The translations under genes were made by a program, and so were the position numbers. Under the pieces are notes generated by a model, which saw only the letters and a program-made list of their open reading frames with translations, did not search any database and was not told the DNA's origin. This document shows, piece after piece, positions 5,242 to 26,525 of a stretch of 32,000 nucleotides of DNA. Origin of the DNA: Candidatus Electronema halotolerans (GTDB taxonomy: Bacteria; Desulfobacterota; Desulfobulbia; Desulfobulbales; Desulfobulbaceae); the NCBI GenBank assembly GCA_942493095.1, contig OW818675.1, forward strand, positions 1,890,001 to 1,922,000, in the 5' to 3' direction. Every line of letters starts with the position of its first letter. Position 1 is the first letter of the stretch.

Positions 5242-5931
5242 ATGGCAAAAGAAAAAATCCTGCTGGTCGAGGATGCCGAGGACATTCTCGAATTGGTCCG
5301 CTACAATCTGAGCAAGGAAGGCTGGCAGGTGCGCTGCGCCATGTCCGGTGAAGATGCGCTGGCCGCCGTGCGTGAGCATGACGTTGACTTGGTCCTGTTG
5401 GACATCATGCTGCCTGGCATGGATGGGTATGAGGTCTGCCGCCGCCTGCGCCGCGATCCGTCTGCCGCGCATCTGCCAGTGATCATGCTGACCGCCAAAA
5501 GCGAGGAGACCGACATGGTGGTCGGCTTGGAGCTGGGCGCGGATGACTACGTGACCAAACCGTTCAGCCCCCGCGTCCTCATTGCCCGCATCAAGGCGGT
5601 GCTGCGCCGAAGGGAGCCGGGCGGGCAGGCAGCGGATGTTCTCAACCTCGGCGAGCTGCGGATTGACCGCTCCCGCCACGAGGTGCGCGTCAAAGGCGAG
5701 CCAGTGCGCCTGACTGCGACCGAGTTCGGCATTCTCCTCTGTCTGGCCCTGCGGCCCGGCTGGGTCTTCAGCCGCTATCAGATTGTCGAGGCTGTGCGGG
5801 GCGGAGATTACAGCGTCACAGACCGGGCCGTGGATGTGCAGATTGTCGGACTGCGGAAAAAGCTGGGTGAACTGGGCAGCTGCATTGAAACCGTGCGCGG
5901 GGTGGGCTACCGCTTCAGCGATCAAGGATGA
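5242..5931 (+). CDS. OmpR/PhoB-family response regulator (receiver plus winged-helix domain)
   Basis: Receiver motifs are ILLVEDAEDI and LVLLDIMLPGMDG. LTAKSEETDMVVGLELGADDYVTKPFSPRVLIARIKAVLRR is very PhoB-like. The C-terminus has LTATEFGIL...VDVQIVGLRKKL...IETVRGVGYRF. No histidine kinase gene is adjacent. Confidence 0.9.
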   Translation: MAKEKILLVEDAEDILELVRYNLSKEGWQVRCAMSGEDALAAVREHDVDLVLLDIMLPGMDGYEVCRRLRRDPSAAHLPVIMLTAKSEETDMVVGLELGADDYVTKPFSPRVLIARIKAVLRRREPGGQAADVLNLGELRIDRSRHEVRVKGEPVRLTATEFGILLCLALRPGWVFSRYQIVEAVRGGDYSVTDRAVDVQIVGLRKKLGELGSCIETVRGVGYRFSDQG

Positions 5932-9307: not shown

Positions 9308-11515
9308 ATGAGGCTTTATGAAGTTGCGGTCGCCGCGCCGCTGCCCGGCCCGCTGACCTATTGCCATGCCGAGGCTTTGCCGGTCGGCATCCGGGTGCTG
9401 GCACCGCTCGGCAGCCGCCTTTTGTCCGGGGTGGTGCTGACGGAACTGTCTGAAACAGACGGACAGTTCCTTGGCGAGATCAAGCCAATAGCCAAAGTTC
9501 TTGATCAAGAACCGCTTTTCCCGCCCGCGTTGATTCCCTTTTTCCGCTGGATGGCGGAATATTATCATCATCCCATTGGCGAGGTGCTCCGCACTGCCCT
9601 GCCTGCCACAGCGGCCAAAGCGAAAACCGAGATCGCGGTCCGGCTTTGCTCCCCAAAATCAGAGCAGCCTGCGGCCAAGCTCAAGCCGTCTGAGCTGAAA
9701 ACCTTGGACCTCTTTTATCAGCATAGCGGCGGCAGCCCGGTTCTGCCGCGTCAGGTGCTGACTAAAATTTATAAAGGTGCTGGCCAAGCTCTGCGCGGCT
9801 TGGCTGAGGCAGGCTTGGTCAGCTTGGAGGAGCGGCAGGTCTTGCGTGATCCCTTTGGCGACACACTGCCCTTTTTCGCCCGCCCGGAAACGTTGACCGA
9901 GGAGCAGAAGACAGTTGTGGCTGAACTGTGCCGCGCAGTCGATGCAGACGTATTTCAGCCCTTTCTTCTCCACGGCGTGACAGGCAGCGGCAAGACCGAA
10001 GTCTATCTCCGGGCCACAGAACACTGTCTGGCCCAGAAAAAAAATGTCCTTGTCCTTGTGCCGGAATTAGCCTTGGCTTCCCAGCTTGAGGCTCATTTTT
10101 ACTCCCGTTTTGGCAGCAAATTGGCAGTGCTGCACAGCGGCCTTTCTGAGGGCGAGCGATTTGATCAGTGGCAGCGCGCTCTCCACGGCGCGGCAAGAAT
10201 TGTCGTCGGAGCGCGATCAGCGATTTTTGCCCCCTTTGCCGAGCTGGGCCTGCTGATTGTCGATGAGGAGCATGAACCGGCCTACAAGCAGGACGAACAC
10301 CTGCGCTACAATGGCCGCGACATGGCTGTGCTGCGGGCGCGTTTTGCCGCCTGCCCAGTGCTGCTCGGCTCGGCCACGCCCAGCCTGACCAGCTTTTATC
10401 ATGCCCAGCAGGGCCGGTACAAGCTGCTGACCATGAGCAAGCGGATTGACGGCCAGCTCCTGCCCAAGGTGGAGATTGTTGATCTGAGCAAGGAAAAGCG
10501 GCCTAAGCCGGACTGGTTCTTTTCCGAGCGGCTGACCGCAGCTCTGCGCGACAACTTGGCCCAAGGGCTGCAAAGCCTGCTCTTTGTCAACCGGCGCGGC
10601 TATGCCTCATTCATGCTCTGCCGCGACTGCAAGGCCGTGGTGCGTTGCCGCAATTGCCGCGTCTCCCTGACCTTGCACCGAGGTAGCGGCAGGTTGATCT
10701 GTCATTACTGCGGCTACTCGCTCAAGCCAGTGGCCGCCTGCCCGGAATGCGGTTCCAGCGCAGTGGCTGGGCTGGGGCTTGGCTCGGAACGGGTGGAGGC
10801 GGAAGTGCGGCGGCTTTTTCCTGAAGCGCGAGTGGCCCGTTTAGACAGCGACACAGCTGGCAGCCGCAAGGACTATCTGGCCCTGCTTCAGCAGGTGCGT
10901 GAGCAGCAGATTGATATTCTGGTAGGAACGCAAATGGTGGCCAAGGGGCTGCATTTTCCCAAGATGACCTTGGTCGGCGTGGTCTGGGCGGACAGCGGCC
11001 TTGCCCTGCCTGACTGCAAGGCTGCGGAACGCTCCTTCCAGCTGCTGGCTCAGGTGACAGGCCGGGCGGGCCGGGGCGAGCATCCGGGCCGGGTGATCAT
11101 CCAGACCCATCAGCCCCAGCATTATGTGGTGGAAGCGGCCCGCGACCATGCTTACGAGAGAATGTGCGGCTTGGAGCTGGAGCTGCGGCAGGTGCTTGGC
11201 TATCCGCCTTTTGGCCGCCTGATCAACATTCGCTTCAGCAGCCAGAATGAAGCGCAGGTGGAGCGGACAGCGCAGGCGGCGGCCGAGCTGCTGCAAGCTG
11301 CCTTGGAGGCGAACAAGCTGGAAGTGGAAATTCTCGGCCCGGCCCCGGCTCCGCTTTCCCTGATCAGAAATCGGTTCCGCTGGCAGCTCTTGCTCAAAGG
11401 CGGGCGGCCAGAACAGCTTCATCAGCTTTGTGAGGTGCTGCTGCAAGAGAAAAAGCGGCTCTGCGGCACAACGGTACGGCTGGGAATTGATGTTGACCCG
11501 GAAAATATGATGTGA
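9308..11515 (+). CDS. priA: Primosomal protein N' (replication restart helicase PriA)
   Basis: Contains Walker A (GVTGSGKTEVY), the DEEH box and a Cys-rich zinc module (CRDCKAVVRCRNCRVSLTLH...CHYCGY...CPECGS). The C-terminal RFRWQLLLK...DVDP is also present. Length is 735 aa. Confidence 0.92.
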   Translation: MRLYEVAVAAPLPGPLTYCHAEALPVGIRVLAPLGSRLLSGVVLTELSETDGQFLGEIKPIAKVLDQEPLFPPALIPFFRWMAEYYHHPIGEVLRTALPATAAKAKTEIAVRLCSPKSEQPAAKLKPSELKTLDLFYQHSGGSPVLPRQVLTKIYKGAGQALRGLAEAGLVSLEERQVLRDPFGDTLPFFARPETLTEEQKTVVAELCRAVDADVFQPFLLHGVTGSGKTEVYLRATEHCLAQKKNVLVLVPELALASQLEAHFYSRFGSKLAVLHSGLSEGERFDQWQRALHGAARIVVGARSAIFAPFAELGLLIVDEEHEPAYKQDEHLRYNGRDMAVLRARFAACPVLLGSATPSLTSFYHAQQGRYKLLTMSKRIDGQLLPKVEIVDLSKEKRPKPDWFFSERLTAALRDNLAQGLQSLLFVNRRGYASFMLCRDCKAVVRCRNCRVSLTLHRGSGRLICHYCGYSLKPVAACPECGSSAVAGLGLGSERVEAEVRRLFPEARVARLDSDTAGSRKDYLALLQQVREQQIDILVGTQMVAKGLHFPKMTLVGVVWADSGLALPDCKAAERSFQLLAQVTGRAGRGEHPGRVIIQTHQPQHYVVEAARDHAYERMCGLELELRQVLGYPPFGRLINIRFSSQNEAQVERTAQAAAELLQAALEANKLEVEILGPAPAPLSLIRNRFRWQLLLKGGRPEQLHQLCEVLLQEKKRLCGTTVRLGIDVDPENMM

Positions 11516-11521
11516 GCAAAG

Positions 11522-11552
11522 CGAGGGCAGATACGCAGCGTACCTGCCCTCG
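11522..11552. terminator. Hairpin between convergent priA and the 497-aa gene
   Basis: CGAGGGCAG, a 13-nt loop, then CTGCCCTCG (9-bp stem). It is placed between the two stop codons at 11515 and 11579. Neither side has a strong T-run. Confidence 0.35.
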
Positions 11553-11578: not shown

Positions 11579-13072
11579 TTACTTCTCCGGTGTTACGCTG
11601 GCTGCGACCGCTTCAGCCATTTTTGCCCGCATTTCCTCAGCAGGGGGCATTTCCTTTTCCTTGCCCATATCAACCAGACTCATTGCCAGCGCGCCGATTG
11701 CCGCATTTTCATCCCCGGCTTTCCGCGATGATTTGTCTCTGCCGCCCATTGCCATAACATCTTCCATCAGCTCGTTGACTTGGAATGGCATCAGTCTGGA
11801 TTTCAGCACATTTATGATCTGGCTGCCGACCTCAGCGGCAACTCCTGCGCTGCGGTTTTCCGGTGCGGGGATGTTCAGTTCCTCAATCAGCGGAAAAGAC
11901 ATCATCGCTTCGGCAATGCGACCGATTGAAGCGCAGTTACGGCGATCTTGCGGCATCAGCCATTCAGCGAGGTTGCGCCAGTGCTGGCGGAGACGCATCA
12001 TCACCGGTGAATCATCAGCACCATTTCCTCTCAATCCATATCTTGGAGCACCATCACCATCTGGTCGCGGGCGGGCACCTGTTCCGTCAATATTGATGTC
12101 AAGAAAATGGTGCCAAGTCGCATCTGTCACCACTCTGCCAACTCCGGCCCGATGGCCATCATAAGCGGCAATAGCAATAAATTCTCGTGGAATCGGAGTA
12201 GCTTTGGGTATGTCATTAGGATTTCCAGGAACTTCCCCAGGGGCCAAGGGAAAGAAAAGAGGCCCTCCCTCAGACATGGATTTGGCAACAATCTCTGGTG
12301 AAACTGGGGTATTACCACTAATCTCGGGTGGCCATTCTCGTTTTTCCTCTCCGTCAAGATCGAAGAAGGTTTCCAGATTTTCTGGAATTATACACTCTCC
12401 TTCATGCGGATGATCTGGAATATGTACTATTGCCCGGCCATCTTGAGCTTGCATTAACGGATGAGGATTTCCTGCCCCCCCAGCTACAGTATCTCTATTC
12501 AGAAAGAGTCGCTGTGGATGAATATCTGATTCATCTGCAAATTCATACATTACATCGTCACCAGACAGCATAGTGGAAAGGCGATCAGGGCCACTTTGAC
12601 TTGGCACACCTTGGTCGAATGTCCACTTTCGCATACTGCGCACTCGTGGAATATCTTTGGCTGTTCGCGCTCCAAGGTCTTCATGGTCTCCTGTGGCAAA
12701 CACTCCGCCTCCTTCTTCCATGAATTTTTTGATTGCTGTAAGTTCACTGTCTTCAAGGATAGGTACGCCAAATCTCCCACGTGCCTCATCATCAAATGTA
12801 AAAATAAAGCAGACATCGTATCTTGATCTGCTTAACCCATTGCTTACATCATCGAATTTGAAATCCAGCAAGGTTCCAGCAGGTTCGTTATTTGGCCCCA
12901 GAATATTTGCTCGTGTCACCTCCATGCCTGCGCCCAAGAGTGTATCGACAAACTGTGAAAGAGAAAAGCCTTGAAATACTGCATTCTCTTTACTAAACCA
13001 CATATCCGTAACCACAAGCACACGCGGTGTGCAGCCATCGGCAAAAGCATTGATAATGTCTGGGTTAATCAT
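11579..13072 (-). CDS. Hypothetical 497-aa protein with N-terminal ThuA / class I glutamine-amidotransferase-like fold features (cassette gene 5)
   Basis: Lies in ORF 11579..13099. The ATG at 13072 has GGAGA 7 nt upstream. RVLVVTD...YDVCFIFTFDD...LTAIKKFMEEGGGVFATGDHEDLG has the layout of ThuA/DUF4159-type GATase1-like domains, but there is no nucleophile Cys at the elbow. There is no signal peptide. The C-terminal roughly 170 aa are encoded by higher-GC DNA. Confidence 0.6.
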   Translation of the reverse strand: MINPDIINAFADGCTPRVLVVTDMWFSKENAVFQGFSLSQFVDTLLGAGMEVTRANILGPNNEPAGTLLDFKFDDVSNGLSRSRYDVCFIFTFDDEARGRFGVPILEDSELTAIKKFMEEGGGVFATGDHEDLGARTAKDIPRVRSMRKWTFDQGVPSQSGPDRLSTMLSGDDVMYEFADESDIHPQRLFLNRDTVAGGAGNPHPLMQAQDGRAIVHIPDHPHEGECIIPENLETFFDLDGEEKREWPPEISGNTPVSPEIVAKSMSEGGPLFFPLAPGEVPGNPNDIPKATPIPREFIAIAAYDGHRAGVGRVVTDATWHHFLDINIDGTGARPRPDGDGAPRYGLRGNGADDSPVMMRLRQHWRNLAEWLMPQDRRNCASIGRIAEAMMSFPLIEELNIPAPENRSAGVAAEVGSQIINVLKSRLMPFQVNELMEDVMAMGGRDKSSRKAGDENAAIGALAMSLVDMGKEKEMPPAEEMRAKMAEAVAASVTPEK

Positions 13073-13204
13073 GGTGCTATCTCCTTTTTTTAACAGCATT
13101 GGATAGTTCGGCGTTATTTTTCCGTAACGCCGTGTTTAAAGAAGCTGGACAACCTTTGCCCGGCTTTTTCTTCTGATCATGCAACGTGGTTCAGCAACCT
13201 GTTG

Positions 13205-13630
13205 CTAACCAAACCAGATACTTACAATGACTCTTTGGTCATCTGTTATGATGTTCACTCTATTGGGTATGCTGTCCGCAGTAATAGGATCGCCGGTTTT
13301 ATAGACTCGCAAAGGTCGGCCAACCAACTCCTGTATCTGCACAGGCTGAGTATTCGGAATACTCTCTCCGTCACAGGGTTCAAAGCCTTGCCTGCCTCTG
13401 ATGCCGTCATTCAAAAAATGCCACCCATCTTCAGTGATTTCATAAGCATTCATATTGCCAGTCGGCGCGCCGCAGACAGCAGCCACGATATGTGACTGCT
13501 TTTCCATTTGTATGATGTTGCTGTCACCAATCAATTCAGCAAGCTCACGCCGCATTTCCTCCAAGGTGATTTCCCGTGCGGCCTCGCATTGAATCGTTCC
13601 GTCCTGCTTGCATACCCAAATATTGTTCAT
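13205..13630 (-). CDS. Small 141-aa protein with C-terminal peptidase-inhibitor I78/I13-like motif (cassette gene 4)
   Basis: GGAGGA lies 8 nt upstream of the ATG. The C-terminus ELVGRPLRVYKTGDPITADSIPNRVNIITDDQRVIVSIWFG fits the pattern lvG...Rv..pG..vT.D....RvNi..D....I..i..G. I do not recognise the N-terminal half. Confidence 0.6.
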   Translation of the reverse strand: MNNIWVCKQDGTIQCEAAREITLEEMRRELAELIGDSNIIQMEKQSHIVAAVCGAPTGNMNAYEITEDGWHFLNDGIRGRQGFEPCDGESIPNTQPVQIQELVGRPLRVYKTGDPITADSIPNRVNIITDDQRVIVSIWFG

Positions 13631-13653
13631 AGAGTTATTCCTCCTTGTTTTTC

Positions 13654-13691
13654 AAAAAAAGCTCTCCTGCGATCAGATGTTGCAGGAGAGC
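13654..13691 (-). terminator. Rho-independent terminator inside the cassette (after gene 3)
   Basis: On the minus strand: GCTCTCCTGC-AACATCTGATC-GCAGGAGAGC (10-bp stem, 13691..13661) followed at once by TTTTTTT (13660..13654). It starts 25 nt after the stop at 13717 and ends about 24 nt before the next ATG at 13630. Confidence 0.7.
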
Positions 13692-13716
13692 GGAGAGATA
13701 TAGTCAGGTTATTGCA

Positions 13717-14736
13717 TCAAACCTTCTCAAGTGTGTTGATGCTGATATGCGGCCAGCGGACAAGCCCTGGATGGCCGTCTTCACGCGGCATGAAGTCAAG
13801 GATGACAATCTGCAAGTATTGCAGGATCATTTTGTCAACTCCATGATCATCAATCCGCATGATCCAGAAGGTTGATTTCATCGAAGCGGCATTGGCCTGT
13901 TTGACGATAAAGGGGATATTGTTGATTCCTCCTGTCTCCACTGTGCTGTCCACTTTCAGAACGGCTGTTGTTTCGAGAATATTGATGCCAGCTACATCCC
14001 ACTGATCCCTTACTTTTTGCAGGAGCCTTTGCGGGTTGATCGGATCAAATCCATGAAAATGGCAGTCCGCAAAGTGTTTGTACGGTGCCAAGTAAGGATC
14101 ATTCAGGTCACGGGTATCTCCAACAGGCAGCCCACTCTTTAACAGCTTCGGTATTTCAACATCATCAGGAACGAACCCGCTTCTTCCCAAAGCCAGCACA
14201 GCATCCCCATGAGGAATTGTGGCCAGCCGGGCGAGGTCGATTTCGTTTAACCTTTCATCAACCATGTGCAGCCAGAGTCCCGGTTCACGATGAATGACCT
14301 TGCCATCAAAATCACCTGCATTTTCATCTTTTGGGAAATCTTCAGCAGAAATCTGGGTTATCATCTGCTGATAGTCAAGGGCAACCACCCTCTGGTCAAA
14401 ATCTGGGCCTGCTGCTGCGATGCCGATGTTGTCCAGATGTTTTCCTCGATTTGGCACCCCCTTGTCCACCAAATCAAATTTAAGCTCTTCGTTATACTGA
14501 TTCACAAGCAGCCGATAGTCAATCTGCTCTCCATCTGACATTTCAATCTGCTTTCCATCTGACATTGCATCTTGAAAAGGGAGAGCAATCATATTGAACC
14601 CTTGTCCTTCAAAGTTTGGTGTGTTGCACCAAACACCAGGCAAGTCTTTCAACGGGCCGAGATCAGAATCACCTGATACAGCTCTGGAAAGAGTTCTGCC
14701 GTTCGCTTTCAGCGTGTGAAACAATTCATTAGCCAT
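13717..14736 (-). CDS. Nitrobindin/lipocalin-like beta-barrel protein, 339 aa (cassette gene 3, paralog of gene 2)
   Basis: LGPLKDLPGVWCN...GFNMIALPF...YRLLVNQYNEELKF...HREPGLWLHM...ATIPHGDAVLALG follows the nitrobindin/THAP4-type heme-binding barrel pattern (L..L.G.W.G.G ... Y.E...F ... H.E.G). The C-terminal block FIVKQANAASMKSTFWI...RWPHISINTLEKV is shared with the paralog. No signal peptide. Confidence 0.6.
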   Translation of the reverse strand: MANELFHTLKANGRTLSRAVSGDSDLGPLKDLPGVWCNTPNFEGQGFNMIALPFQDAMSDGKQIEMSDGEQIDYRLLVNQYNEELKFDLVDKGVPNRGKHLDNIGIAAAGPDFDQRVVALDYQQMITQISAEDFPKDENAGDFDGKVIHREPGLWLHMVDERLNEIDLARLATIPHGDAVLALGRSGFVPDDVEIPKLLKSGLPVGDTRDLNDPYLAPYKHFADCHFHGFDPINPQRLLQKVRDQWDVAGINILETTAVLKVDSTVETGGINNIPFIVKQANAASMKSTFWIMRIDDHGVDKMILQYLQIVILDFMPREDGHPGLVRWPHISINTLEKV

Positions 14737-14814
14737 TGTTCATTTCCTTTTTTCAGGTTATTATGAATGAATTTAAAGCAATAGAATGAGAGTGGTTGCG
14801 ATAAAACAAGTCAA

Positions 14815-14839
14815 CATGAGCGCAATTTCTGCGCTCATG
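14815..14839 (-). terminator. Hairpin after cassette gene 2 (9-bp stem)
   Basis: CATGAGCGC-AATTTCT-GCGCTCATG. On the minus strand it is followed by TTGACTTGTTTTAT, which is T-rich but interrupted. Confidence 0.4.
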
Positions 14840-14862
14840 ATTTGCAAGGGAACCCGTAGAGA

Positions 14863-15861
14863 TCAGCTATCGACCTTCTCCAGCGTATTGATGCTCACAT
14901 GCGGCCAGCGGATAATGCCAGGCAGTCCGTCCTCACGGGCAAGGAAGTCAAGCAGGACAACTTGCGCATATTGCAGACGGAATCTGATTGAACCATCTGT
15001 CTCTTGAATTTCCTGAATCCAAAAGGTTGACTTCATCGAAGCAGCATTTGCCTGCTTCACAATAAAGGGAAGATTGACAATGCCTCCGGTTTCCGCAGTG
15101 CTGTCAACCTCCAGCACGGTTGTCCTGATAATATTTACATCTTTATTTGCTTCCTTCAGCAGCTTATGCGGATTGACCGGATCGAAACGTCCCTGAAATG
15201 GATTCTCGTGAAAATGCCTGTATGGCTCCATGTAGGAATCAGTGAGCGGCATCGGATATCCGATCGGCAGGCCATTAATCGCCTCGATCCTCGGCGGGCC
15301 GCTATGCACAGCACTTTTTCCCACAGCCAGCACAGAATCACCGTGGGGAATAGTGGCCAGTCTGGCAATATCGAAACTGTTTGTCCGTTCGTTCAACATA
15401 TGCAGCAAAAGTCCTGGCTCATGATGAATCGCAAGGCCGGGGCCGCCTGCCTTTCCGCTCTGTGGAAAATCATCTGCCGCAATTTGATGGATGACCTGCT
15501 CATAATCAATCGTCACAACAAATTGATCTGAATCCTCGAACGTATCTTCATGATGCGGGAATATCTGCGGATCAGGCACATTCTGCTGTGTCCGCTTTAT
15601 GCCCCGGTTAGGCACTCCTTTGTCCACCAAGGTGAACTTCAGCGTTTCGTTGTACCGATTTATCAGCAGCCGATAGTTCAGTCGTGCAAAGGCGAACGGG
15701 AGGGCGATCATGTTCCAGCCGTGTCCTTCAAGATTCGGCTCGTTTTTCCATGTGCCGGGCAGATGTTGCAACGGACCAAGAAGTTCCTGATCTCCTGCTG
15801 TTGCGGTGCTGATTTTCCGTCCTTCAGTCTGAATTCTTGCAAGTTGCTCTTGGATTGACAT
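14863..15861 (-). CDS. Nitrobindin/lipocalin-like beta-barrel protein, 332 aa (cassette gene 2)
   Basis: AGGAGG lies 5 nt upstream of the ATG. LGPLQHLPGTWKN...GWNMIALPF...YRLLINRYNETLKF...HHEPGLLLHM...ATIPHGDSVLAVG. By eye it is roughly half identical to the 339-aa paralog. No signal peptide. Confidence 0.6.
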   Translation of the reverse strand: MSIQEQLARIQTEGRKISTATAGDQELLGPLQHLPGTWKNEPNLEGHGWNMIALPFAFARLNYRLLINRYNETLKFTLVDKGVPNRGIKRTQQNVPDPQIFPHHEDTFEDSDQFVVTIDYEQVIHQIAADDFPQSGKAGGPGLAIHHEPGLLLHMLNERTNSFDIARLATIPHGDSVLAVGKSAVHSGPPRIEAINGLPIGYPMPLTDSYMEPYRHFHENPFQGRFDPVNPHKLLKEANKDVNIIRTTVLEVDSTAETGGIVNLPFIVKQANAASMKSTFWIQEIQETDGSIRFRLQYAQVVLLDFLAREDGLPGIIRWPHVSINTLEKVDS

Positions 15862-15959
15862 CTATTCCTCCTTTGGAAATGTTTAAGACAGCTCGCTTGC
15901 GAGCAGATTGGAAAATTTCCTTGATCAAGCGGTGAGCGATCAAGGAGAGAGAAATCCAT

Positions 15960-16952
15960 TCAGATATCAATATAAAACCACGTTGGAATGACTCCAGCCT
16001 GCCAGCATGCCCGTGCGTAACGGGCTGCGTCCCTCATGGTGTCGATTGCTGTTCTCCACAAACTCTCTGGTGAAATAGGGCTGCCTGGATTCAAAGTCCA
16101 AAGCGGATTGAGCGATCCCATCATTGCCATGAATTTGCCTTGCAAGGCATCATTGGCCGGATACTTCGGATTGCGTTGGCCTGTGTACACATCAGGAAAA
16201 CCTGTCTGCTGGATATGGAGAAGACGGCCAAAATGGGAATATTGTTTTAACATCACCTCTTGGTAAGGTGCGCTATGCGCTCCAGCAGGCGCACGGTTGT
16301 CCATCTGATATTGCGATTCAACTGGAAAGTCTGAAGGTTTGTAGGGCTTCTGAATGGGTGAGGTCATACGACGGCCCTCGCCCTGCTCTTCAATGGCTGT
16401 AACAGCTTCTTTTGCGTCACCAATGTTGCAGATGATCTGCGGATATTCCTGCTGAATCCACCGCGCCTGCTGATTTCTGCTGGTCCAGCTAAACTGACTT
16501 GCCCCGACGCTTTGAATGCCGCAGATCAGAGCATGGTACATTTCACCGATGGAGCTGTAAGGAAAAGTCGGCGTGTTGTTGCCGTCTGGTGTTGGATCAT
16601 TTGGCCCCAATGTGTGCTCTGGGGTCTCAATAGCCAGCATTGTATTGAGTGTCTCAGCATTGAGCGGCCCCATTTTAGCATTGAGAACTGTTCCTGGCTT
16701 TAAGTACGGTATGTTTGTTCCATAAGCAGGAAACTGAAAGTTTGGAGTCGTATCAAGCGCAAGACAAAGGTTGGCTGCCAGTTGCAGGTGCATCATTTCC
16801 TCAATGAGGATTCCGTGCAAAATTTTGTACGCGTCACAATTCTCATCCTTGATGGAGGTCATTACGGTAGTGTAGAACGGAATAGTGTACAGTTCAATCG
16901 CCGCTGCCACCTGTGCATGTTTCTGAACCAGTTCCTTTGTCCAAGCTGTCAT
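15960..16952 (-). CDS. Ferritin-like domain protein (candidate diiron enzyme), 330 aa (cassette gene 1)
   Basis: AGGAGA lies 5 nt upstream of the ATG. AAIELYTIPFYTTVMTSI ... ILIEEMMHLQLAANLCLAL is the E...Y / EExxH helix pair typical of the uncharacterised 'Ferritin-like' family, the one also found in VioB-type proteins. No signal peptide. Confidence 0.65.
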   Translation of the reverse strand: MTAWTKELVQKHAQVAAAIELYTIPFYTTVMTSIKDENCDAYKILHGILIEEMMHLQLAANLCLALDTTPNFQFPAYGTNIPYLKPGTVLNAKMGPLNAETLNTMLAIETPEHTLGPNDPTPDGNNTPTFPYSSIGEMYHALICGIQSVGASQFSWTSRNQQARWIQQEYPQIICNIGDAKEAVTAIEEQGEGRRMTSPIQKPYKPSDFPVESQYQMDNRAPAGAHSAPYQEVMLKQYSHFGRLLHIQQTGFPDVYTGQRNPKYPANDALQGKFMAMMGSLNPLWTLNPGSPISPESLWRTAIDTMRDAARYARACWQAGVIPTWFYIDI

Positions 16953-16976
16953 CGCAATCTCCTTTTCTTACAGAAT

Positions 16977-16992
16977 GTATAAATATTTATAC
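16977..16992. promoter_or_regulatory. Perfect 16-bp AT-rich palindrome GTATAAATATTTATAC in the cassette promoter region
   Basis: It lies 25-40 nt upstream of the gene-1 ATG (16952) and overlaps the only -10-like hexamers on the minus strand (TATAAA, TATACA). The surrounding 16953-17148 region is AT-rich. I could not find a convincing -35. Confidence 0.45.
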
Positions 16993-17148
16993 TAACTTTG
17001 ACATCCCTCTGGAAAAATATGCCATAGTTAATTTGTAAGTGAAGAAGCATGAAAAGTCAAATTATTTTTTACCACGCTGTGGTTTTTCTTGCAACTTTTC
17101 GGGATGATAAGAAAACTATTTTCAGACCGAACGTCAGCCAGTTCTGAA

Positions 17149-17188
17149 ACAAAAAAAGCGGTGCTTCCCGTATTAGGAAAACACCGCT
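17149..17188 (-). terminator. Rho-independent terminator of the AMIN-domain gene
   Basis: On the minus strand: AGCGGTG(TT)TTCC-TAATACG-GGAAGCACCGCT followed by TTTTTTTGTTT (A-run 17151-17157 on the plus strand). Confidence 0.65.
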
Positions 17189-17235
17189 TTCTCAAGCACT
17201 TGGTTCGGCTCGGTTATTTTTTGTCCGCCTTGTAA

Positions 17236-17295
17236 GCAAACAAGCTGGAGGTGGAAATTCTTTGTCCGGCTCCGCTCTCCCTGATCAGAAACCGG
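17236..17295 (+). pseudogene. 60-bp fragment homologous to the 3' part of priA (11309-11374)
   Basis: GCAAACAAGCTGGAGGTGGAAATTCTTTGTCCGGCTCCGCTCTCCCTGATCAGAAACCGG aligns with priA GCGAACAAGCTGGAAGTGGAAATTCTCGGCCCGGCCCCGGCTCCGCTTTCCCTGATCAGAAATCGG. The identical runs are 11, 11, 11 and 14 nt, with one 6-nt gap. The fragment translates in frame as NKLEVEILCPAPLSLIRNR, against PriA NKLEVEILGPAPAPLSLIRNR. Confidence 0.75.
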
Positions 17296-18811: not shown

Positions 18812-19759
18812 ATGACATCCTTACTTGCCTCTTCCATCTACATAGCTGGACATCGCGGCTTGGTCGGCAGCGCAATCTGCCGTGCGCTGGCGCAGGCTGG
18901 CTGCGCCAATCTGCTGACCCGAACCCACGCTGAACTGGATTTGACCGATCAGGCGGCGGTGCGCCGCTTTTTTGCTGAAGAACAGCCGGAATACGTCTTT
19001 CTTGCTGCGGCTAAAGTCGGCGGCATTCATGCCAACAACAGCAGTCCGGCGGATTTCATCCGTGACAACCTGCTGATTCAGACCAATATCATTGACGCGG
19101 CTTGGCGGCACGGCACGAAAAAGCTGCTTTTTCTTGGCTCATCCTGCATTTATCCCAAGCTCGCGCCTCAGCCGATGCAGGAGGAGCATCTCCTCACCGG
19201 CCCGCTGGAGCCGACCAACGAATGGTACGCTGTCGCCAAAATCGCAGGCATCAAGACCTGTCAAGCCTATCGCCAGCAATACGGTTTTGACGCGATCAGC
19301 CTGATGCCGACCAATCTCTACGGGCCGGGTGACAACTTTGACCTGCAAAGCTCGCATGTCCTGCCCGCCTTGATCAGAAAATTTCACGAAGCCAAGATCA
19401 ACGGTCTGCCGGAAGTGGAAATCTGGGGCACTGGTACCCCGAAGCGGGAATTTCTCCACGTTGATGACCTTGCTTCGGCCAGCCTTTTTCTGATGGAGCG
19501 GTACAGCGAGGCGGAAATCATCAACATTGGTTCCGGGCAGGAGGTCACAATTGCTGATTTAGCCGCTTTGGTCAGCCGAACAGTTGGCTTTCCGGGCGCA
19601 GTCCGCTATAATCCAGCCATGCCTGACGGCACGCCGCGCAAGCTGCTGGACGTGTCCAAACTTACGACCTTGGGCTGGCAGAGCCGAATCACTCTTGAAG
19701 AAGGCATTGCTTCAACGTATGCTTGGTTTCTTGAACACGGGCAGCAGGCCCGCCTATAA
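18812..19759 (+). CDS. fcl: GDP-L-fucose synthase (GDP-4-keto-6-deoxy-D-mannose 3,5-epimerase/4-reductase)
   Basis: [14 protein letters not shown] (Rossmann motif), [28 protein letters not shown] (YxxxK), [11 protein letters not shown] and [10 protein letters not shown] are all typical of Fcl/WcaG. Length is 315 aa. Confidence 0.9.
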
Positions 19760-20566
19760 ATGAATCTGACTGCTTTTGCCGCCTTTCTCCGCCTGCTCTA
19801 CAATCGGCGCAGGCTGATCACAGCTATGGCGGCGCGGGAGTTGCGTTCCCAGTATGTGGCCTCGTCGCTCGGCCTGCTCTGGACGCTGATTCATCCGATT
19901 GTGATGATCACGGTCTTCTGGTTTGTCTTCAGCGTCGGCTTCAAGGCCAGACCGCTCAATGACGTGCCGTTCGTGGTCTGGCTTACAGCGGGCATGGCTC
20001 CGTGGTATATTTTTTCCGAGATAGTCAGCGGCTCGACCGGCATTGTCATCGCCCATGCCCACTTGGTCAAGAAAACTCTTTTTTCCTCGCAAATACTGCC
20101 TCTTGTCAAAATCGCCTCAGCCTTGGTCACGCACGGAATTTTCCTGCTGGTCCTGCTGACCTTGCTCCTCTTTCAGCAGATGCCAGTCAGTCTGTATTAT
20201 GTGCAGGCCCTGTATTATCTTTTCTGCCTGCTCATGCTTTCGCTCGGCATTGCCTGGGGCTTGGCCGCGCTCAATGTGTTCATGCGCGATGTGGCCCAGC
20301 TCGTGGCCGTGCTCCTCCAGATCGGCTTCTGGGTCACGCCGATTTTCTGGGACATCAGCATGATGAGTCCAAAAATTCAGCATCTGCTCAAGCTCAATCC
20401 GATCTATTATGTGGTGCAGGGCTACCGGGATTCCTTTATCACTTTTCAGCCGGTCTGGTCGCATCTTGCCTACACAGCCTACTACTGGGTTGTCACTGCC
20501 GCTGTGCTGGCCAGCGGCGCATACATTTTTCGGAAGCTGCGACCCCAGTTTCCTGACGTGCTGTAA
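19760..20566 (+). CDS. wzm: ABC-2 type polysaccharide export permease (Wzm-like)
   Basis: The ATG directly follows the fcl stop codon. RELRSQYVASSLGLLWTLIHP is the usual ABC-2 N-terminal motif, followed by about 6 hydrophobic segments. Length is 268 aa. Confidence 0.85.
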   Translation: MNLTAFAAFLRLLYNRRRLITAMAARELRSQYVASSLGLLWTLIHPIVMITVFWFVFSVGFKARPLNDVPFVVWLTAGMAPWYIFSEIVSGSTGIVIAHAHLVKKTLFSSQILPLVKIASALVTHGIFLLVLLTLLLFQQMPVSLYYVQALYYLFCLLMLSLGIAWGLAALNVFMRDVAQLVAVLLQIGFWVTPIFWDISMMSPKIQHLLKLNPIYYVVQGYRDSFITFQPVWSHLAYTAYYWVVTAAVLASGAYIFRKLRPQFPDVL

Positions 20567-20568
20567 TC

Positions 20569-21879
20569 ATGTCTGAGCCGGTCATTTCTGTCCGCAACGC
20601 AAGCAAAGTTTATGCGCTCTACCGCAAGCCGATTCACCGGCTGCTGGAGATTTTTCATCCTCGCGGGAGAAAATATCACACACCCTTCCGGGCCTTGGAC
20701 AATATCAGCTTTGAGCTGGGCCGGGGCCAAGCCTTGGGCATTATTGGCCGCAACGGCAGCGGCAAGTCCTCCCTGCTCCAGCTCATCACCGGCATTCAGC
20801 AGCCGAGCAGCGGCACGGTGCAGGTCAAGGGCCGCATTTCCGCCCTGCTGGAGCTGGGCGCAGGCTTCAACCCGGAGTTCACAGGCCGGGAAAATGTCTA
20901 TCTCAACACCGCCATTCAGGGCTTTTCTGAAGAGGACACAGATGCCCGTTTTCAGCGCATCGCGGAATTTGCCGACATCGGCGAGTTCATCGACCGGCCT
21001 GTTAAGACCTATTCCAGCGGCATGTACATCCGCTTGGCCTTTGCCGCCGCAATCAGTGTCCAGCCAGAAATCCTGATTATCGATGAAGCCCTGTCTGTAG
21101 GCGATATTTTCTTTCAGCAGAAGTGCATGACTCAGATGCAGAAGATGATGGCAGGCTGCACCATTGTCTTGGTCAGTCATGACACGCATTCGATAGTCAA
21201 TCTCTGCGACCGAGTCCTCCTGCTGGAGAATGGGCGGGTCATGTTTGACGGCGATCCGGTGGATGGCGTGGCTGAATACACCAAAATTCTCCATGACGAG
21301 CATTTCAGCGGCGGGAAGAAGAAAGAACGGCTGAAGACTGCATCATTGCCCTCGCCGCCGGTCAGCACGCCGGGCCTGCTGGAAGATTTCTCCCAGTGGA
21401 TCAAGGTGCCGCACGAGAAACGCTCCGGGGTGGAGGAGGCGGCAATTGAGTATCTAAGCGTGATCAGCAACGGCAAGCCGGTTAATGTAGTGCAGAAGGG
21501 CGATTTGATCACCATTCGTCTGCTGGTTCATGCTGCGACTACTTTAGACGAGCTGATTTTCGGCTACACCGTCAAAGACCGGATCGGCAATGCAGTTTTT
21601 GGTGAAAACAGTCTTTGTCTGAATATGCCAGCTCCGCGTTTGCAGGCCGGACGCAGCATTGTTGAGTATTCCTTCCGCTGGCCAGAGGTTTATCCTTACA
21701 AATACACGATCACGGTCGGCATTGGCCAGGGCGAGGCCGCGCTGGGCCATGTGGTCCAGTGCTGGGCGCATGACATTGTTTCCCTGACCGCCGTGACTCC
21801 AAACCGCTCCATTCATGGAATGTTCAATAATGATTTGGAGTCGTTGACGGTGCGGGCAGTGGAATCTGCTGAAGAATAA
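20569..21879 (+). CDS. wzt: Polysaccharide ABC transporter ATP-binding protein with C-terminal Wzt-type glycan-binding domain
   Basis: Contains Walker A (GRNGSGKSSLL), the signature YSSGMYIRLAF, Walker B (ILIIDEALSVGD) and an H-loop (VSHD). An extra C-terminal region of about 170 aa (IEYLSVISNGKPVNVVQKGDLITIRL...YTITVGIGQG) resembles the Wzt C-terminal beta-sandwich. Confidence 0.85.
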   Translation: MSEPVISVRNASKVYALYRKPIHRLLEIFHPRGRKYHTPFRALDNISFELGRGQALGIIGRNGSGKSSLLQLITGIQQPSSGTVQVKGRISALLELGAGFNPEFTGRENVYLNTAIQGFSEEDTDARFQRIAEFADIGEFIDRPVKTYSSGMYIRLAFAAAISVQPEILIIDEALSVGDIFFQQKCMTQMQKMMAGCTIVLVSHDTHSIVNLCDRVLLLENGRVMFDGDPVDGVAEYTKILHDEHFSGGKKKERLKTASLPSPPVSTPGLLEDFSQWIKVPHEKRSGVEEAAIEYLSVISNGKPVNVVQKGDLITIRLLVHAATTLDELIFGYTVKDRIGNAVFGENSLCLNMPAPRLQAGRSIVEYSFRWPEVYPYKYTITVGIGQGEAALGHVVQCWAHDIVSLTAVTPNRSIHGMFNNDLESLTVRAVESAEE

Positions 21880-21896
21880 CGAAAATTTTATTGCAA

Positions 21897-23000
21897 ATGA
21901 TCTACCCAAAAGACATAGTTGAATTTGTCAGCAATGACCCTGCGCTGAAGGAACGATTCAGCCACGTTGCCGCCATTGCCTCGGTCAACACAAGCACCAC
22001 GCCAGTTCCTCAGCAGGACTTCGCCTTTGAAGAGTATATGCTGAGAGAAGGCTTTGAAAAAAGCCGGGCAATTAGGAAATATTTGCATTTCATCGCTTCA
22101 ACCTACAGCATCTTCAACGATATATTTCACTATTTCCCCAAGAGAAATCTCAACAGCACCCACAAGGATGATGTCAGTGCTATTGGCACTGCGCCGGGAG
22201 AGCTGATCTATCACGCCATTTATCTGTATTGCTTGGATAGCTGGGGCGTGCCGGGCGATGTGATGGAATGCGGCACCTACAAGGGCTTTTCCGCCTGCTG
22301 CCTGAGCTGGGTCTGCAATTACCTTGGCCGACGGCTGATTGTCGCTGATTCCTTTGCTGGGCTGCCAGAGAACAGCACAGACCCTTATTACAAAAAAGGC
22401 GATTTTTGCGGCCAAATCGACGAAGTGCGGGCTAATCTGGAGGACTTTGGCAGGATTGCGCAGGTGGATTTCATCCAAGGCTTTTACGAGACCTCCCTGC
22501 GCGGCTTTGACCGCCCGCTCTGCCTGCTCTGGATGGACGTGGATTTGTACGAATCGGCAATGGATATTCTCAACAATGTCTTTCCTTTTCTCTCGTCCGG
22601 CGGAGTGATGATTTCGCATGAATTGTTTGCCGAGCGGGATTTTGACAACGGCCTGCTCAAGCCCACCATCGGCCCGTCCAAAGCTCTGAATGCCTTTTTC
22701 AGCGAACGCGGCCTCAGCTATCAGGCCATGCCGCTGGAAAACGGCTCCGGCTTGGTAGTGCCCTGCCAGCCGGGCGAAAAGTTGCTGCTTTCTTGCGCGC
22801 ATGTTCAGTTCCTCCGCGACCGCTGCCGCAATTCTGACACCGTGCTGGCCCGGCAGCAGGCGCAGGCCGAGCATGACATCCGCCATTGGCAGCACGAAGT
22901 GGATAAGCTGATGCAGATTTACCGCGCCACTGCTGATTTCAAGCTCAAGCAGGCGGTCAAAGGCATTCTTGCCGCCCTCGGCCTGTACAAGAAAAGCTGA
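21897..23000 (+). CDS. TylF/MycF-like O-methyltransferase with C-terminal coiled-coil tail
   Basis: The ORF opens at TTG 21891 and the first ATG is at 21897. GDVMECGTYKGFSACCLS...LIVADSFAGLPE...LWMDVDLYES...GGVMISHE matches the TylF-family pattern. The tail ARQQAQAEHDIRHWQHEVDKLMQIY looks like a coiled coil. Confidence 0.75.
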   Translation: MIYPKDIVEFVSNDPALKERFSHVAAIASVNTSTTPVPQQDFAFEEYMLREGFEKSRAIRKYLHFIASTYSIFNDIFHYFPKRNLNSTHKDDVSAIGTAPGELIYHAIYLYCLDSWGVPGDVMECGTYKGFSACCLSWVCNYLGRRLIVADSFAGLPENSTDPYYKKGDFCGQIDEVRANLEDFGRIAQVDFIQGFYETSLRGFDRPLCLLWMDVDLYESAMDILNNVFPFLSSGGVMISHELFAERDFDNGLLKPTIGPSKALNAFFSERGLSYQAMPLENGSGLVVPCQPGEKLLLSCAHVQFLRDRCRNSDTVLARQQAQAEHDIRHWQHEVDKLMQIYRATADFKLKQAVKGILAALGLYKKS

Positions 23001-24145
23001 TGTACGAACAATATCTTGTCACAGACAGCGGCAAGCTGCGGCAGATCGAGGATGCCCTTCTAAGCAGCTATTTCAAGAATTACGATCAGGATTTTCTCCA
23101 GACTGAAACCGGCAAGGAGGACATCAAGGCCAATGTTTATCGGCGATATGACAGGGCCTTGCTGCATGCCGTGCCTTGGGTGGCCCGGCAGATTGACCTG
23201 CGCGGCAAGACTGTGGTCGAAATCGGCAGCGGCACTGGTTCCAGCACGGCGGCCTTTGCCCATTTTGTTGAAAAAATAGACGGCTATGACATTGACGCGC
23301 AGGCTTTGGCCGGGGCGCGGGCGCGGCTGGAGGTGATGGGATTGCGCAACGTTGTCCTGCATCACGTTGTGCCGGAAAATTTAGTCAGCACCCTGCGGGA
23401 CAATCATGCCGACGGCGTGGACATTGTCCTCCTTTTTGCCGTGCTGGAACATCAGACCATCCGTGAGCGGCAGGAAACTCTGAAGCTCTGCTGGGAAATG
23501 CTTAAGCCGGACGGTCTGCTGGTGGTCACGGAAACGCCCAATCTGCTGCAATACTCGGACTTGCACACATCCCTGCTGCCCTTTCTCCATCTGCTGCCGA
23601 CCGAACTCTATGCCCGTTATGCAGACCGTTCACCCAGAGAAGGCTTTGGCGGCTGCTTTGCCAACGCTGATTCCATGTCCTTGCGGGACTTGGACACCTC
23701 GATCATGCGCTGGGGTCGGGGCGTAAGCTATCATGATTTTGAACTGGCTCTGGGCAAGGATCATGGCAAACACCTTGTTGCGCATGGTTTTGAGGAAGAA
23801 ATTTTGAGCTGGGTGGAAGTGCATTTTGAAGAGGAACTGCTGCGCCATTATTTTTTGGTCAAAAAGCTCGATGTGCCGCTGGCTTTCTCCCGGATCGTGC
23901 TCAATTTGATTTACAAAAAAAGCGAAGCTCCTGCGCCGGAACTTGCGCCGCCGCCGGAGAACATTTTTATTGCGGAAAAACAGCTGCTCCGTGAGAAGGA
24001 ATTTGTCATCAGTAGTTTAAACAAACGGCTGGCCGCTGCGGAGCAGCAGCTCAATGAAGTGCTGTCTTCTAAACGTTGGCTTTTGGGCACTCTTCTTGCC
24101 GCACCGTATCGAAAACTGAAGGAGCTGCTCGCCAGCCAGAAATAG
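23000..24145 (+). CDS. Class I SAM-dependent methyltransferase with C-terminal coiled-coil tail
   Basis: The start overlaps the previous stop (TGATG). Motif I is VVEIGSGTGSSTAAFA, with DIVLLFAVLEH and LKPDGLLVV downstream. The tail AEKQLLREKEFVISSLNKRLAAAEQQLNEVLSSKRW looks like a coiled coil. Confidence 0.8.
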   Translation: MYEQYLVTDSGKLRQIEDALLSSYFKNYDQDFLQTETGKEDIKANVYRRYDRALLHAVPWVARQIDLRGKTVVEIGSGTGSSTAAFAHFVEKIDGYDIDAQALAGARARLEVMGLRNVVLHHVVPENLVSTLRDNHADGVDIVLLFAVLEHQTIRERQETLKLCWEMLKPDGLLVVTETPNLLQYSDLHTSLLPFLHLLPTELYARYADRSPREGFGGCFANADSMSLRDLDTSIMRWGRGVSYHDFELALGKDHGKHLVAHGFEEEILSWVEVHFEEELLRHYFLVKKLDVPLAFSRIVLNLIYKKSEAPAPELAPPPENIFIAEKQLLREKEFVISSLNKRLAAAEQQLNEVLSSKRWLLGTLLAAPYRKLKELLASQK

Positions 24146-24156
24146 CAAGACTGAGA

Positions 24157-25635: not shown

Positions 25636-26513
25636 AACGCACCAGTATCATCATTCTTAACTGGAACGCTGCTGAAGACACGATGAGCTGTGTCCGCCAG
25701 CTTCAGGCCTTTCTCGTGGATGAAGCGACCATCTATGTTGTGGACAATAACTCAGCTCCAGCGGATCAGGAAAATCTCCGGCAAGGCTGTCAACATGTTA
25801 TTTTTATTTGGAATGACAAGAATCTCGGCTATGCTGGCGGCAACAATGTCGGCATCCGCAGTGCTGTCAGCGAAGTACACGAGTTTGTCCTGCTGATGAA
25901 CAACGATGCCCGGATTGAGGAAAAGGATTTTCGGCTCTTAGTGCAGGCAATGGATGCAGAACCAAACTTAGGTGTTGTCGGGCCGATCATCCGTGACCGG
26001 CCTAGCGGCGCAATCCTGAACGCGGGCGGCAGGGACATAGGCCGTCATTATATTTCCCATTTTAAAGAACCATTGCAGCAGGATGCGCTCTACAATGCAG
26101 ATTATGTCTCCGGCACTGTCTGTCTCATCCGTGCCTGCTTGTTTGATATGATCGGCCTGCTGGATGAGAGCTATTTTTTCAGCGGCGAAATTGCTGATTT
26201 CTGCACAAGGGTACAAAAAAAACATTTTCGCACAGCAGTGCAGCCGTTGGCCGAAGCGGTGCATGACCTCGCCGCCTCACACGGCAACCGGGGTGGAATT
26301 TACACCTATTATACCGTCCGCAATCGCTTTCTCTACATCCGCAAGCACCTTCGTTCCTCCATTCCGGTACTCTTTCCCTATTGGACAGCCCTCCACCTTC
26401 GCCATGCCTTCCGCTGTTTGCGGGAGAAAAAACAGACCGAACTGCGGATGGTGCTGAAAGGACTTGCCCACGGTTTGCGCGGAAAATTCGGCCCGCTGAC
26501 ACCACGCAGCTAA
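25632..26513 (+). CDS. Family 2 glycosyltransferase (rhamnosyltransferase-like, 293 aa)
   Basis: ATGA overlap with the previous gene. Motifs are TSIIILNWNAAEDTMSCV, IYVVDNNS, NLGYAGGNNVGIR and LLMNNDA. Confidence 0.85.
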   Translation: MKRTSIIILNWNAAEDTMSCVRQLQAFLVDEATIYVVDNNSAPADQENLRQGCQHVIFIWNDKNLGYAGGNNVGIRSAVSEVHEFVLLMNNDARIEEKDFRLLVQAMDAEPNLGVVGPIIRDRPSGAILNAGGRDIGRHYISHFKEPLQQDALYNADYVSGTVCLIRACLFDMIGLLDESYFFSGEIADFCTRVQKKHFRTAVQPLAEAVHDLAASHGNRGGIYTYYTVRNRFLYIRKHLRSSIPVLFPYWTALHLRHAFRCLREKKQTELRMVLKGLAHGLRGKFGPLTPRS

Positions 26514-26525
26514 TCAGGAAGCAAC

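Follow-up and report, generated by a model that had tools for sequence, protein, structure and literature searches.

A stretch of 32,000 nucleotides from the closed, 3.2 Mb genome of the cable bacterium Candidatus Electronema halotolerans (contig OW818675.1, positions 1,890,001 to 1,922,000; hereafter the window) carries five co-oriented open reading frames (ORFs) on its minus strand, between priA and a gene coding for an AMIN-domain protein. In the order of transcription, this cassette encodes a ferritin-like protein (Fer), two paralogous barrel proteins predicted to bind haem (BarA and BarB), a 141-residue protein with a C-terminus resembling the I78 inhibitors (the I78-like protein) and an orphan protein of 497 residues. 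We tentatively interpret the cassette as a hitherto undescribed, modular cytoplasmic redox module that would consume hydrogen peroxide (H2O2), a reading that we favour while giving it somewhat less than an even chance. As anticipated by the original prediction, a first reading of the bare sequence of the window, no described system or pathway combining these five families was found in profile libraries or in the literature, and the genome paper of Electronema halotolerans does not mention the cassette genes. The nearest known systems each resemble one part of the cassette and none matches the whole. By our estimate, the function most probably falls within a familiar type of chemistry, that of peroxides or haloperoxidases, which uncharacterised families would carry out here.

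The first line of evidence is recurrent linkage. The same families were found together in related loci (designated here by L numbers), contrary to the possibility, raised with the original prediction, that these genes would never co-localise elsewhere. While the window is arranged as Fer-BarA-BarB-I78-497, L031 carries BarA-BarB-I78-497 and L040/L041 carry Fer-BarA-BarB. Other loci also encode a vanadium bromoperoxidase (VBPO): L033 is arranged as VBPO-Fer-I78-497, L027 as VBPO-Fer-Bar-497 with a gene for a 160-residue membrane protein between Fer and the barrel, and L028/L029 as VBPO-Fer-497 followed by a hemerythrin gene, whereas L022 shows Fer-497 and, 700 nucleotides further on, Fer-VBPO, and L036 the AMIN gene, a priA remnant, Fer and VBPO. 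The recurring families share 50-70% protein identity and occur in rearranged orders within at least four genomic contexts. Fer and the 497-residue gene are adjacent or nearly so in the window, L022, L027, L028/L029 and L033, although the flanking genes differ (e.g., glycolysis genes in L022, a malic enzyme gene in L033 and, beside the Fer-BarA-BarB genes of L040, a gene for a periplasmic binding protein), so that linkage has been kept across contexts and rearrangements. A barrel joins this pair in the window and in L027, and is absent from L022, L028 and L033; the BarA-BarB pair is itself kept in L031 and L040/L041. The I78-like gene adjoins the 497-residue gene in the window, L031 and L033, and is absent from L022, L027 and L028. 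Consequently, the cassette does recur in relatives, as proposed at the outset, but its five genes are not an invariant set: the recurring core is Fer with the 497-residue gene, and the barrels and the I78-like protein are interchangeable accessories.

The most informative fact, and one that was not visible to a reader of the window alone, is the presence of VBPO genes in the sister loci. The 615-residue neighbour of Fer in L027, L028 and L033 is a true VBPO; that of L027 matches the Acaryochloris enzyme (5lpc) with an E-value of 7e-208, and its vanadate-site motifs HPSYGAGHA and RDWAGVH are intact. A second, more divergent type is encoded in L022 and L036 (5e-68 against the Corallina VBPO). 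In all five loci VBPO adjoins Fer (L036, 10000-10596; L022, 13355-15217; L027, 605-2452; L028, 1933-3777; L033, 5018-6865). Fer orthologues that are 86-90% identical to one another are followed either by BarA-BarB (window and L040) or by the second type of VBPO (L036). L036 shares the AMIN junction with the window and carries there a Fer that is 90% identical, followed by a VBPO instead of the barrels; past the stop codon of Fer, the two sequences are no longer homologous. VBPO and haem barrels thus occupy the same slot, and may therefore play equivalent roles, in which case both would be H2O2-using catalysts. No mention of haloperoxidases in cable bacteria was found in the literature.

Elsewhere, vanadium haloperoxidases (VHPOs) are encoded beside a supplier of H2O2, as in the marine bromoform (mbb) locus of Asparagopsis, which combines VHPOs with an NAD(P)H oxidase. 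The five VBPO-bearing loci likewise cluster the peroxide-using catalyst with accessory redox proteins, and the logic appears similar. Unlike the mbb locus, the window lacks a VHPO, the partners are a PF12902 protein (Fer) and the 497-residue orphan rather than an NADPH oxidase, and none of these loci has a known halogenated product.

The assignment of Fer, initially described as a ferritin-like protein with an EExxH motif, is firm. It matches Pfam PF12902 with 112 bits (gathering threshold 22.3; E-value 5e-32) over profile positions 2-203 of 221, and the structural-genomics entry 3hl1, a "ferritin like protein", with an E-value of 1e-21. Six residues, E20, E52, H55, E109, E192 and H240, do not vary among 38 homologues, the most distant of which are 24% identical. 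The putative ligand set includes E52-x-x-H55 in the first half of the protein, while the second half contains no canonical ExxH; the invariant set is predicted to form an enzyme-type dimetal site rather than one for storing iron. Full-length members of the subfamily are rare: of 910 PF12902-like hits, 17 representative clusters reach E<=1e-30.

PF12902 is also the domain found in VioB and RebD, and Fer has it in common with the chromopyrrolic-acid synthases VioB, RebD and StaD as well as with 3hl1. RebD works together with the H2O2-producing oxidase RebO. Like these synthases, Fer is associated with haem proteins and H2O2-linked enzymes. Unlike them, it is a stand-alone protein of 330 residues, whereas VioB, RebD and StaD are multidomain haem proteins of about 1000 residues, and the flavin adenine dinucleotide (FAD) oxidase of the VioA/RebO type that partners VioB and RebD is not part of the cassette. 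Membership of Fer in the VioB/RebD/StaD group was consequently rejected on its length and on the lack of an adjacent FAD-dependent L-Trp oxidase gene; indeed no amine or amino-acid oxidase gene was detected in the cassette or the window. In fungi, PF12902 genes adjoin genes for H2O2-producing amino-acid oxidases of the LodA type (PMC4417212). Peroxide-defence operons of the rubrerythrin type offer another parallel, in that they too involve a four-helix-bundle protein of the cytoplasm, of the dimetal-carboxylate kind, in a lineage of anaerobic descent that is under oxygen stress (PMC7875522). Fer differs from rubrerythrin in lacking a rubredoxin domain, in belonging to another Pfam family and in having unrelated partners.

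BarA and BarB share 52% identity. Both cover positions 1-273 of the 273 positions of the NCBIfam model NF040572 "heme-binding protein" (heme_bind_FMP), with 296.9 and 259.5 bits respectively against a cut-off of 150, and NCBI names their relatives "heme-binding protein". On these profile scores NF040572 is the correct family of the barrels. The last 100 residues or so, including a WPH motif, also align to the end of the equivalog model NF040571 "peroxidase, FMP-type", with 93.9 bits for BarA and 83 bits for BarB (cut-off 300), while the remainder of the proteins differs. The family is large (1921 hits) and well conserved, with a mean identity of about 58% across phyla, and three residues (BarA numbering) are invariant, H146, H173 and H321. 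The last of these lies 11 residues from the C-terminus of BarA, a position equivalent to that of the proximal histidine of nitrobindin. Nitrobindins are beta-barrel haem proteins that hold their proximal histidine near the C-terminus and scavenge peroxynitrite (PMC6275384).

The original prediction had called the barrels nitrobindin-like. Their association with haem stands at family level, given the NF040572 scores, while the likeness to nitrobindin is a distant one. The AlphaFold model of BarA (pLDDT 88) is mostly beta, and its best Foldseek match in the PDB is Rv0813c (2fwv), a protein of the nitrobindin type resembling fatty-acid-binding proteins (FABP-like), with a probability of 0.97, an E-value of 0.011 and TM scores of 0.30 normalised to the query and 0.47 normalised to the target. 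The nitrobindin/THAP4 group (PF08768), taken to include M. tuberculosis Rv2717c and Rv0813c, shares with BarA a mostly-beta barrel and a histidine near the C-terminus. Unlike nitrobindin (about 165 residues), the present barrels are twice as large (about 330 residues); neither BarA nor BarB hits PF08768 at E<=1, and the hits of their relatives are weak and limited to 9 of 53 (best 0.0049). No Pfam model covers the barrels, and no PDB relative was found by sequence or profile search. It is thus reasonable to regard them as nitrobindin-like by distant analogy and not as members of the nitrobindin family. They appear to be haem proteins themselves, with haem binding predicted from their family and conserved residues. 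The GenBank label DUF2169 (PF09937) attached to CAK8718926.1 and CAK8718931.1 could not be reproduced: the window proteins give no hit at E<=1, nor does any of the 53 family members at E<=0.1.

Three further observations concern the barrels. BarB contains a 24-nucleotide tandem duplication (14519-14566, 96% identity) that yields a repeated EMSDG(K/E)QI octapeptide in a loop and is missing from the otherwise identical copy in L031. In Sphingomonas, one lineage only, an NF040572 barrel gene directly follows, in the same orientation, a gene for a 637-residue, H2O2-producing PF01593 flavin amine oxidase (L006, 8027-9940, and equivalents in L007, L012, L014 and L016), an order that resembles the VioA/VioB or RebO/RebD arrangement. 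A seemingly conserved 500-residue neighbour of the actinobacterial barrels proved spurious, being a wrong-frame ORF in high-GC DNA.

The 497-residue protein matches no Pfam, NCBIfam, PADLOC or PDB entry by sequence, either singly or as a profile of 62 sequences. At least 988 homologues were found. Its AlphaFold model is confident (pLDDT 89.8, pTM 0.92), with an alpha/beta domain (residues 1-340) followed by a C-terminal helical bundle. The best PDB fold match is the GATase1-like N-terminal GIFT domain of IFT52 (E-value 0.018, probability 0.94, TM score to target 0.54); Foldseek returned no PDB match at E<=0.001 and nothing in the BFVD library. Three motifs are invariant, GDHEDLG, PDHPHEGEC and TDATWHHF, and their composition suggests a metal or active site.

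It had been proposed that this protein has a ThuA/GATase1-like N-terminus, with the PfpI/DJ-1 peptidases as kin. That proposal is contradicted by the family: ThuA (PF06283) was rejected, with no hit at E<=1 for the window protein and none at E<=0.1 for any of the 62 members, and the fold match to IFT52 is the only, weak, trace of GATase1. DJ-1/PfpI and class I glutamine amidotransferases were likewise rejected, with no hidden Markov model (HMM) hit and no nucleophile-elbow cysteine; the segment after the strand at 132-136 reads T-G-D-H-E-D, without cysteine, and the elbow position is D-H rather than C-H. Resemblance to the GATase1-like/GIFT proteins (IFT52, GldG) and ThuA thus amounts to the IFT52 match and a marginal ABC_transp_aux hit in one family member, while a large insert, the C-terminal helical bundle and the lack of HMM hits set the family apart from ThuA, DJ-1/PfpI and GATase. 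To our knowledge, invariant His/Asp/Cys motifs such as these are not features of the GATase1, GIFT or ThuA families.

Recombination has left a sharply bounded mosaic in the 497-residue gene. The DNA of L031, a Logan contig, is about 100% identical to that of the window over BarA, BarB, the I78-like gene and the first codons of the 497-residue gene. Identity then falls abruptly to 54-69% over window positions 12610-13020 (codons 27-163 approximately), recovers to 73-88% further along the gene and reaches 93-95% at its 3' end. The mosaic is confined to the N-terminal alpha/beta domain and leaves the catalytic-looking motifs intact. Solitary distant homologues in L023 (9300-11578) and L025 (8668-11644) occur in other settings, either downstream of a regulator of the HxlR type and near copper-uptake genes (DUF2946, a TonB receptor and YcnI/DUF1775) or beside a gene of the FGE-sulfatase family. 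These settings possibly hint at a metal- or oxidant-related role.

For the 141-residue protein, an I78-like C-terminus was predicted and is borne out at family level. The protein itself scores 22.7 bits against PF11720 (threshold 23.6; E-value 1e-4), matching positions 29-62 of 65 only; 31 of 32 family members hit the model at E<=0.01 (best 5e-8), and the family profile matches the Aspergillus elastase inhibitor AFUEI (3w0d) at 1.8e-5. The match corresponds to the C-terminal 40 residues, with the core and loop region of I78 (AFUEI) and potato inhibitor I. Residue A118 (13277-13279), which aligns with the reactive-site P1 of the potato-inhibitor-I/I78 group, is hypervariable (A, K, R, M, L, F, D, Q or T) and is flanked by the invariant T117 and D119; such variability at the P1-equivalent is as expected for a putative canonical protease inhibitor. 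Unlike characterised, secreted I78 proteins, this one has no signal peptide and bears an additional cysteine-containing N-terminal domain of 90 residues, in which C53 is invariant, C15 nearly so, and C7 lost in a few members. The match spans no more than the C-terminal half of the I78 model; no target protease is apparent, and none is encoded next to the 141-residue gene.

While family memberships, conserved ligand-like residues, operon structure, recurrent linkage and module swap are observed, the binding of haem and metals, all of the chemistry and the part played by the cassette in the cell are inferred. The core would consist of Fer, a dimetal-carboxylate protein acting as an oxidase or in a peroxidase-like manner, and of the 497-residue protein as its constant partner, whose invariant site rich in His, Asp, Glu and Cys on a GATase1/GIFT-like fold would probably confer a metal-dependent activity. 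This core would be combined with an exchangeable H2O2-using catalyst, VBPO in the sister loci and BarA/BarB here. BarA and BarB would possibly form a heterodimer, with the invariant His321 near the C-terminus as the predicted haem ligand, and the I78-type protein may be an optional modulator encoded beside the 497-residue gene. The NF040572 membership of the barrels and the hemerythrin gene of L028 are hints toward the same haem/peroxide theme, as are the C-terminal alignment of the barrels to NF040571, their distant likeness to nitrobindin, the H2O2-producing oxidases encoded beside the Sphingomonas barrel and beside fungal PF12902 genes, and the pairing of RebD with RebO. The O2-reducing cells of cable bacteria are reported to face a heavy load of reactive oxygen species and to express catalase, superoxide reductase and rubrerythrin at high levels (PMC7875522). 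In such O2-exposed cells, cytoplasmic H2O2 may be consumed or exploited by chemistry of the peroxidase or haloperoxidase type.

A bolder form of this reading, which we consider rather unlikely, would make Fer and the 497-residue protein an obligate partner unit for two unrelated kinds of peroxide-driven catalysts, a vanadium haloperoxidase or a new class of double-size, nitrobindin-like haem peroxidase, and thereby a new modular system. The unit might produce H2O2 or pass it on, or else trap hypohalite or some other product of oxidation, and cable bacteria would use the system in the cytoplasm of their O2-reducing cells. The 497-residue protein would then represent a new fold family of metalloenzymes, with the intracellular I78-domain protein as its regulator.

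Several points weigh against a peroxide-centred module. The window itself encodes no haloperoxidase (tblastn over its 32 kb), and the annotated VHPO genes found on plasmids are not accompanied by Fer. All 21 loci seeded with a barrel (from Actinomycetota, Sphingomonas, Pseudoalteromonas and Polyangiales) carry a lone barrel without any other cassette family. Distant homologues of the 497-residue protein (41-48% identity) are solitary in L023, L025, L030 and L035, as are distant I78-like homologues (52-56%) in L032 and L034. The linked loci are few (about eight), lie mostly on short metagenomic contigs and may stem from one bacterial family. With scores far under 300 bits and N-terminal two-thirds that differ, the barrels were rejected as members of the NF040571 peroxidases; in the literature, neither primary data underlying the designation "heme-binding protein" in NCBIfam nor the meaning of "FMP" could be traced. 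None of the cassette proteins has a demonstrated activity, and the metal site of the 497-residue protein is guessed from sequence alone. Wider searches added little: a metagenome scan for the 497-residue family yielded one locus, unlinked, viral-contig scans were uninformative, and the plasmid collection contained no homologue of the protein.

The adjacency of VBPO and Fer in five loci can also be read as the trace of a cassette that makes or tailors a small metabolite, which may be halogenated or coupled by oxidation. Natural-product pathways are the best-known setting of bacterial vanadium haloperoxidases. Fer would be an O2-activating oxygenase resembling VioB or RebD, with which it shares its domain, the barrels or VBPO would use the oxidant, and the 497-residue protein would be a tailoring or hydrolytic enzyme. 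The conservation of the barrels across phyla looks enzyme-like, and the Sphingomonas barrel follows an amine oxidase gene as VioB follows VioA. Yet neither the cassette nor the related loci encode a scaffold enzyme (polyketide synthase, nonribosomal peptide synthetase, terpene or prenyl enzyme, or precursor of a ribosomally synthesised and post-translationally modified peptide), a transporter or a regulator; the window has no halogenase, and Fer is a third of the size of VioB-type proteins of about 1000 residues. We consequently regard a biosynthetic role as unlikely.

Less probable still is the mechanism sketched in the original prediction, in which a diiron protein oxidises a hydrophobic or tetrapyrrole cargo held by the barrels, with the I78-like protein and a 497-residue "hydrolase" as an inhibitor-enzyme pair. 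A calycin/nitrobindin-like barrel fold can indeed hold tetrapyrroles. The second half of the model could draw on the adjacency of the I78-like and 497-residue genes in the window, L031 and L033, on the match of the I78 profile to a real protease inhibitor with a hypervariable P1-equivalent, and on the strain-variable N-terminal domain of the 497-residue protein. However, no specific support was found for the barrels holding a ligand for the diiron enzyme: they look like haem proteins themselves, their invariant histidines fit haem as a cofactor and not as cargo, and Fer does not need them, since they are absent from L022, L028 and L033. The inhibitor-enzyme pair fares no better, as none of the 62 members of the 497-residue family bears a peptidase or ThuA/PfpI signature, D-H stands at the elbow, and Fer and the 497-residue gene are kept without the I78-like gene in L022, L027 and L028.

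The layout of the cassette bears on whether its genes belong together at all. The five co-oriented minus-strand genes announced by the first reading were all found (Table 1). Each is preceded by a Shine-Dalgarno sequence (AGGA/GGAG type), intergenic gaps measure 86-132 nucleotides, and none of the proteins has a signal peptide, their N-termini being hydrophilic when read directly. An exact-sequence look-up identified four of the five proteins as GCAAIG_08380 to GCAAIG_08395. The translation of the remaining ORF, 506 residues long, was without an exact match in the collection searched, consistent with an annotated start that gives a shorter protein. Since AAAGGAG lies 7 nucleotides upstream of the ATG at 13072 and homologues open with MINPxIIN, this ATG, giving 497 residues, is almost certainly the true start, although the ORF extends to 13099. 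Upstream of Fer, TTGACT (17060-17055), TATAAA (16991-16986) and AAGGAG, 7 nucleotides before the ATG, were noted by eye; a consensus promoter scan did not call the two hexamers. With the terminator-like hairpin of the AMIN gene preceding these promoter-like hexamers, the cassette appears to be transcribed separately.

The cassette is horizontally acquired, as judged from its low G+C content at third codon positions (GC3) and the priA repeat that brackets it. GC3 ranges from 0.42 to 0.53 in the cassette, against 0.62-0.70 in priA, galU, the AMIN gene and fcl. Overall GC content is 48.3% in the cassette, 52.8% in the window and 60.5% in priA. The compositional contrast pointed out previously is therefore real but smaller than the single lines quoted for it would imply, and dips to 46-48% GC also occur elsewhere in the window. 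The block is bracketed, as first noticed, by a duplicated fragment of the priA 3' end (75 nucleotides in the original), whose direct repeats D5 and D7 are 83-93% identical. A priA remnant also lies between the AMIN gene and Fer in L036 (8441-8509, 80% identity), and the insertion junction is consequently older than the divergence of these strains. The inserted block itself encodes neither an integrase nor a transposase. Taken as a whole, the cassette is real and separately acquired, and probably forms a single transcription unit.

One flank of the cassette comprises two porin genes, a response regulator gene, galU and priA, the other the AMIN gene and a glycan cluster of the O-antigen type. 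The porin genes are tandem Porin_4 paralogues of 384 residues each (2756-3910 and 4012-5166), with the response regulator downstream (5242-5931). The long glycan cluster (18812-31002, plus strand) encodes an epimerase resembling GDP-fucose synthase, a Wzm/Wzt ABC transporter and several glycosyltransferases, along with methyltransferases of which one is TylF-like. No RNA genes emerged when the window was scanned with Rfam and for tRNAs.

Table 1. Features of the cassette and its borders (window coordinates).
Feature	Position	Strand	Description
Fer	15960..16952	-	330-residue PF12902 ferritin-like protein; first gene of the operon; CAK8718936.1, GCAAIG_08395
BarA	14863..15861	-	332-residue putative haem-binding beta-barrel protein, NF040572
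BarB	13717..14736	-	339-residue paralogue of BarA, NF040572
I78-like gene	13205..13630	-	141 residues, two domains: cysteine-containing N-terminal domain and C-terminal domain like I78/potato inhibitor I
497-residue orphan gene	11579..13072 (ORF to 13099)	-	N-terminal alpha/beta domain and C-terminal helical bundle
Region upstream of Fer	16953..17150	-	Promoter-like hexamers and Shine-Dalgarno sequence of Fer
Intrinsic-terminator-like hairpin and T-run	about 17151..17189	-	Ends the AMIN gene upstream; aagcggtg...caccgcttttttt, by eye
GC-rich hairpin	11523..11551		gagggcag...ctgccctc; between the convergent priA and 497-residue genes
priA 3' end remnant	17227..17295	+	Copy of 11300-11374; far edge of the inserted block

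An inserted block of low GC3 bracketed by a repeated priA fragment could simply be a genomic island whose passengers share no function, the more so as gene content differs among relatives and distant homologues of every family are solitary. Such a chance juxtaposition is improbable in view of the co-orientation, the short gaps, the individual Shine-Dalgarno sites and the single upstream promoter/terminator boundary, and of families that recur together at 50-70% identity, rearranged, in four or more contexts. Finally, an anti-phage or inter-bacterial conflict system, suggested by the variable island, the inhibitor domain, the hypervariable segment, horizontal acquisition, modular swapping, the sharp mosaic breakpoint in the 497-residue gene and a GenBank label, DUF2169, that names a family associated with type VI secretion systems, is highly improbable, since none of the five proteins hits PADLOC-DB at E<=1, the label was not reproducible in any of the 53 members, and the cassette encodes no nuclease, NTPase, toxin or secretion component, its proteins looking like metalloenzymes instead.

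Stand-alone PF12902 proteins, NF040572 barrels, the 497-residue family and intracellular I78-domain proteins are all uncharacterised and count hundreds to thousands of members. The neighbourhood described here ties these four families together and to VBPOs, and consequently provides a first testable functional hypothesis for all four. The 497-residue protein, with a confident predicted structure and no close solved relative, is a candidate for a new enzyme family. The sister loci indicate the presence of a vanadium haloperoxidase gene in L036, a close relative of Ca. Electronema halotolerans, and horizontal exchange of these modules among cable bacteria. Should the cassette handle H2O2, it would be relevant to the survival, under oxidant load, of the small number of cells that reduce O2 in a cable filament.

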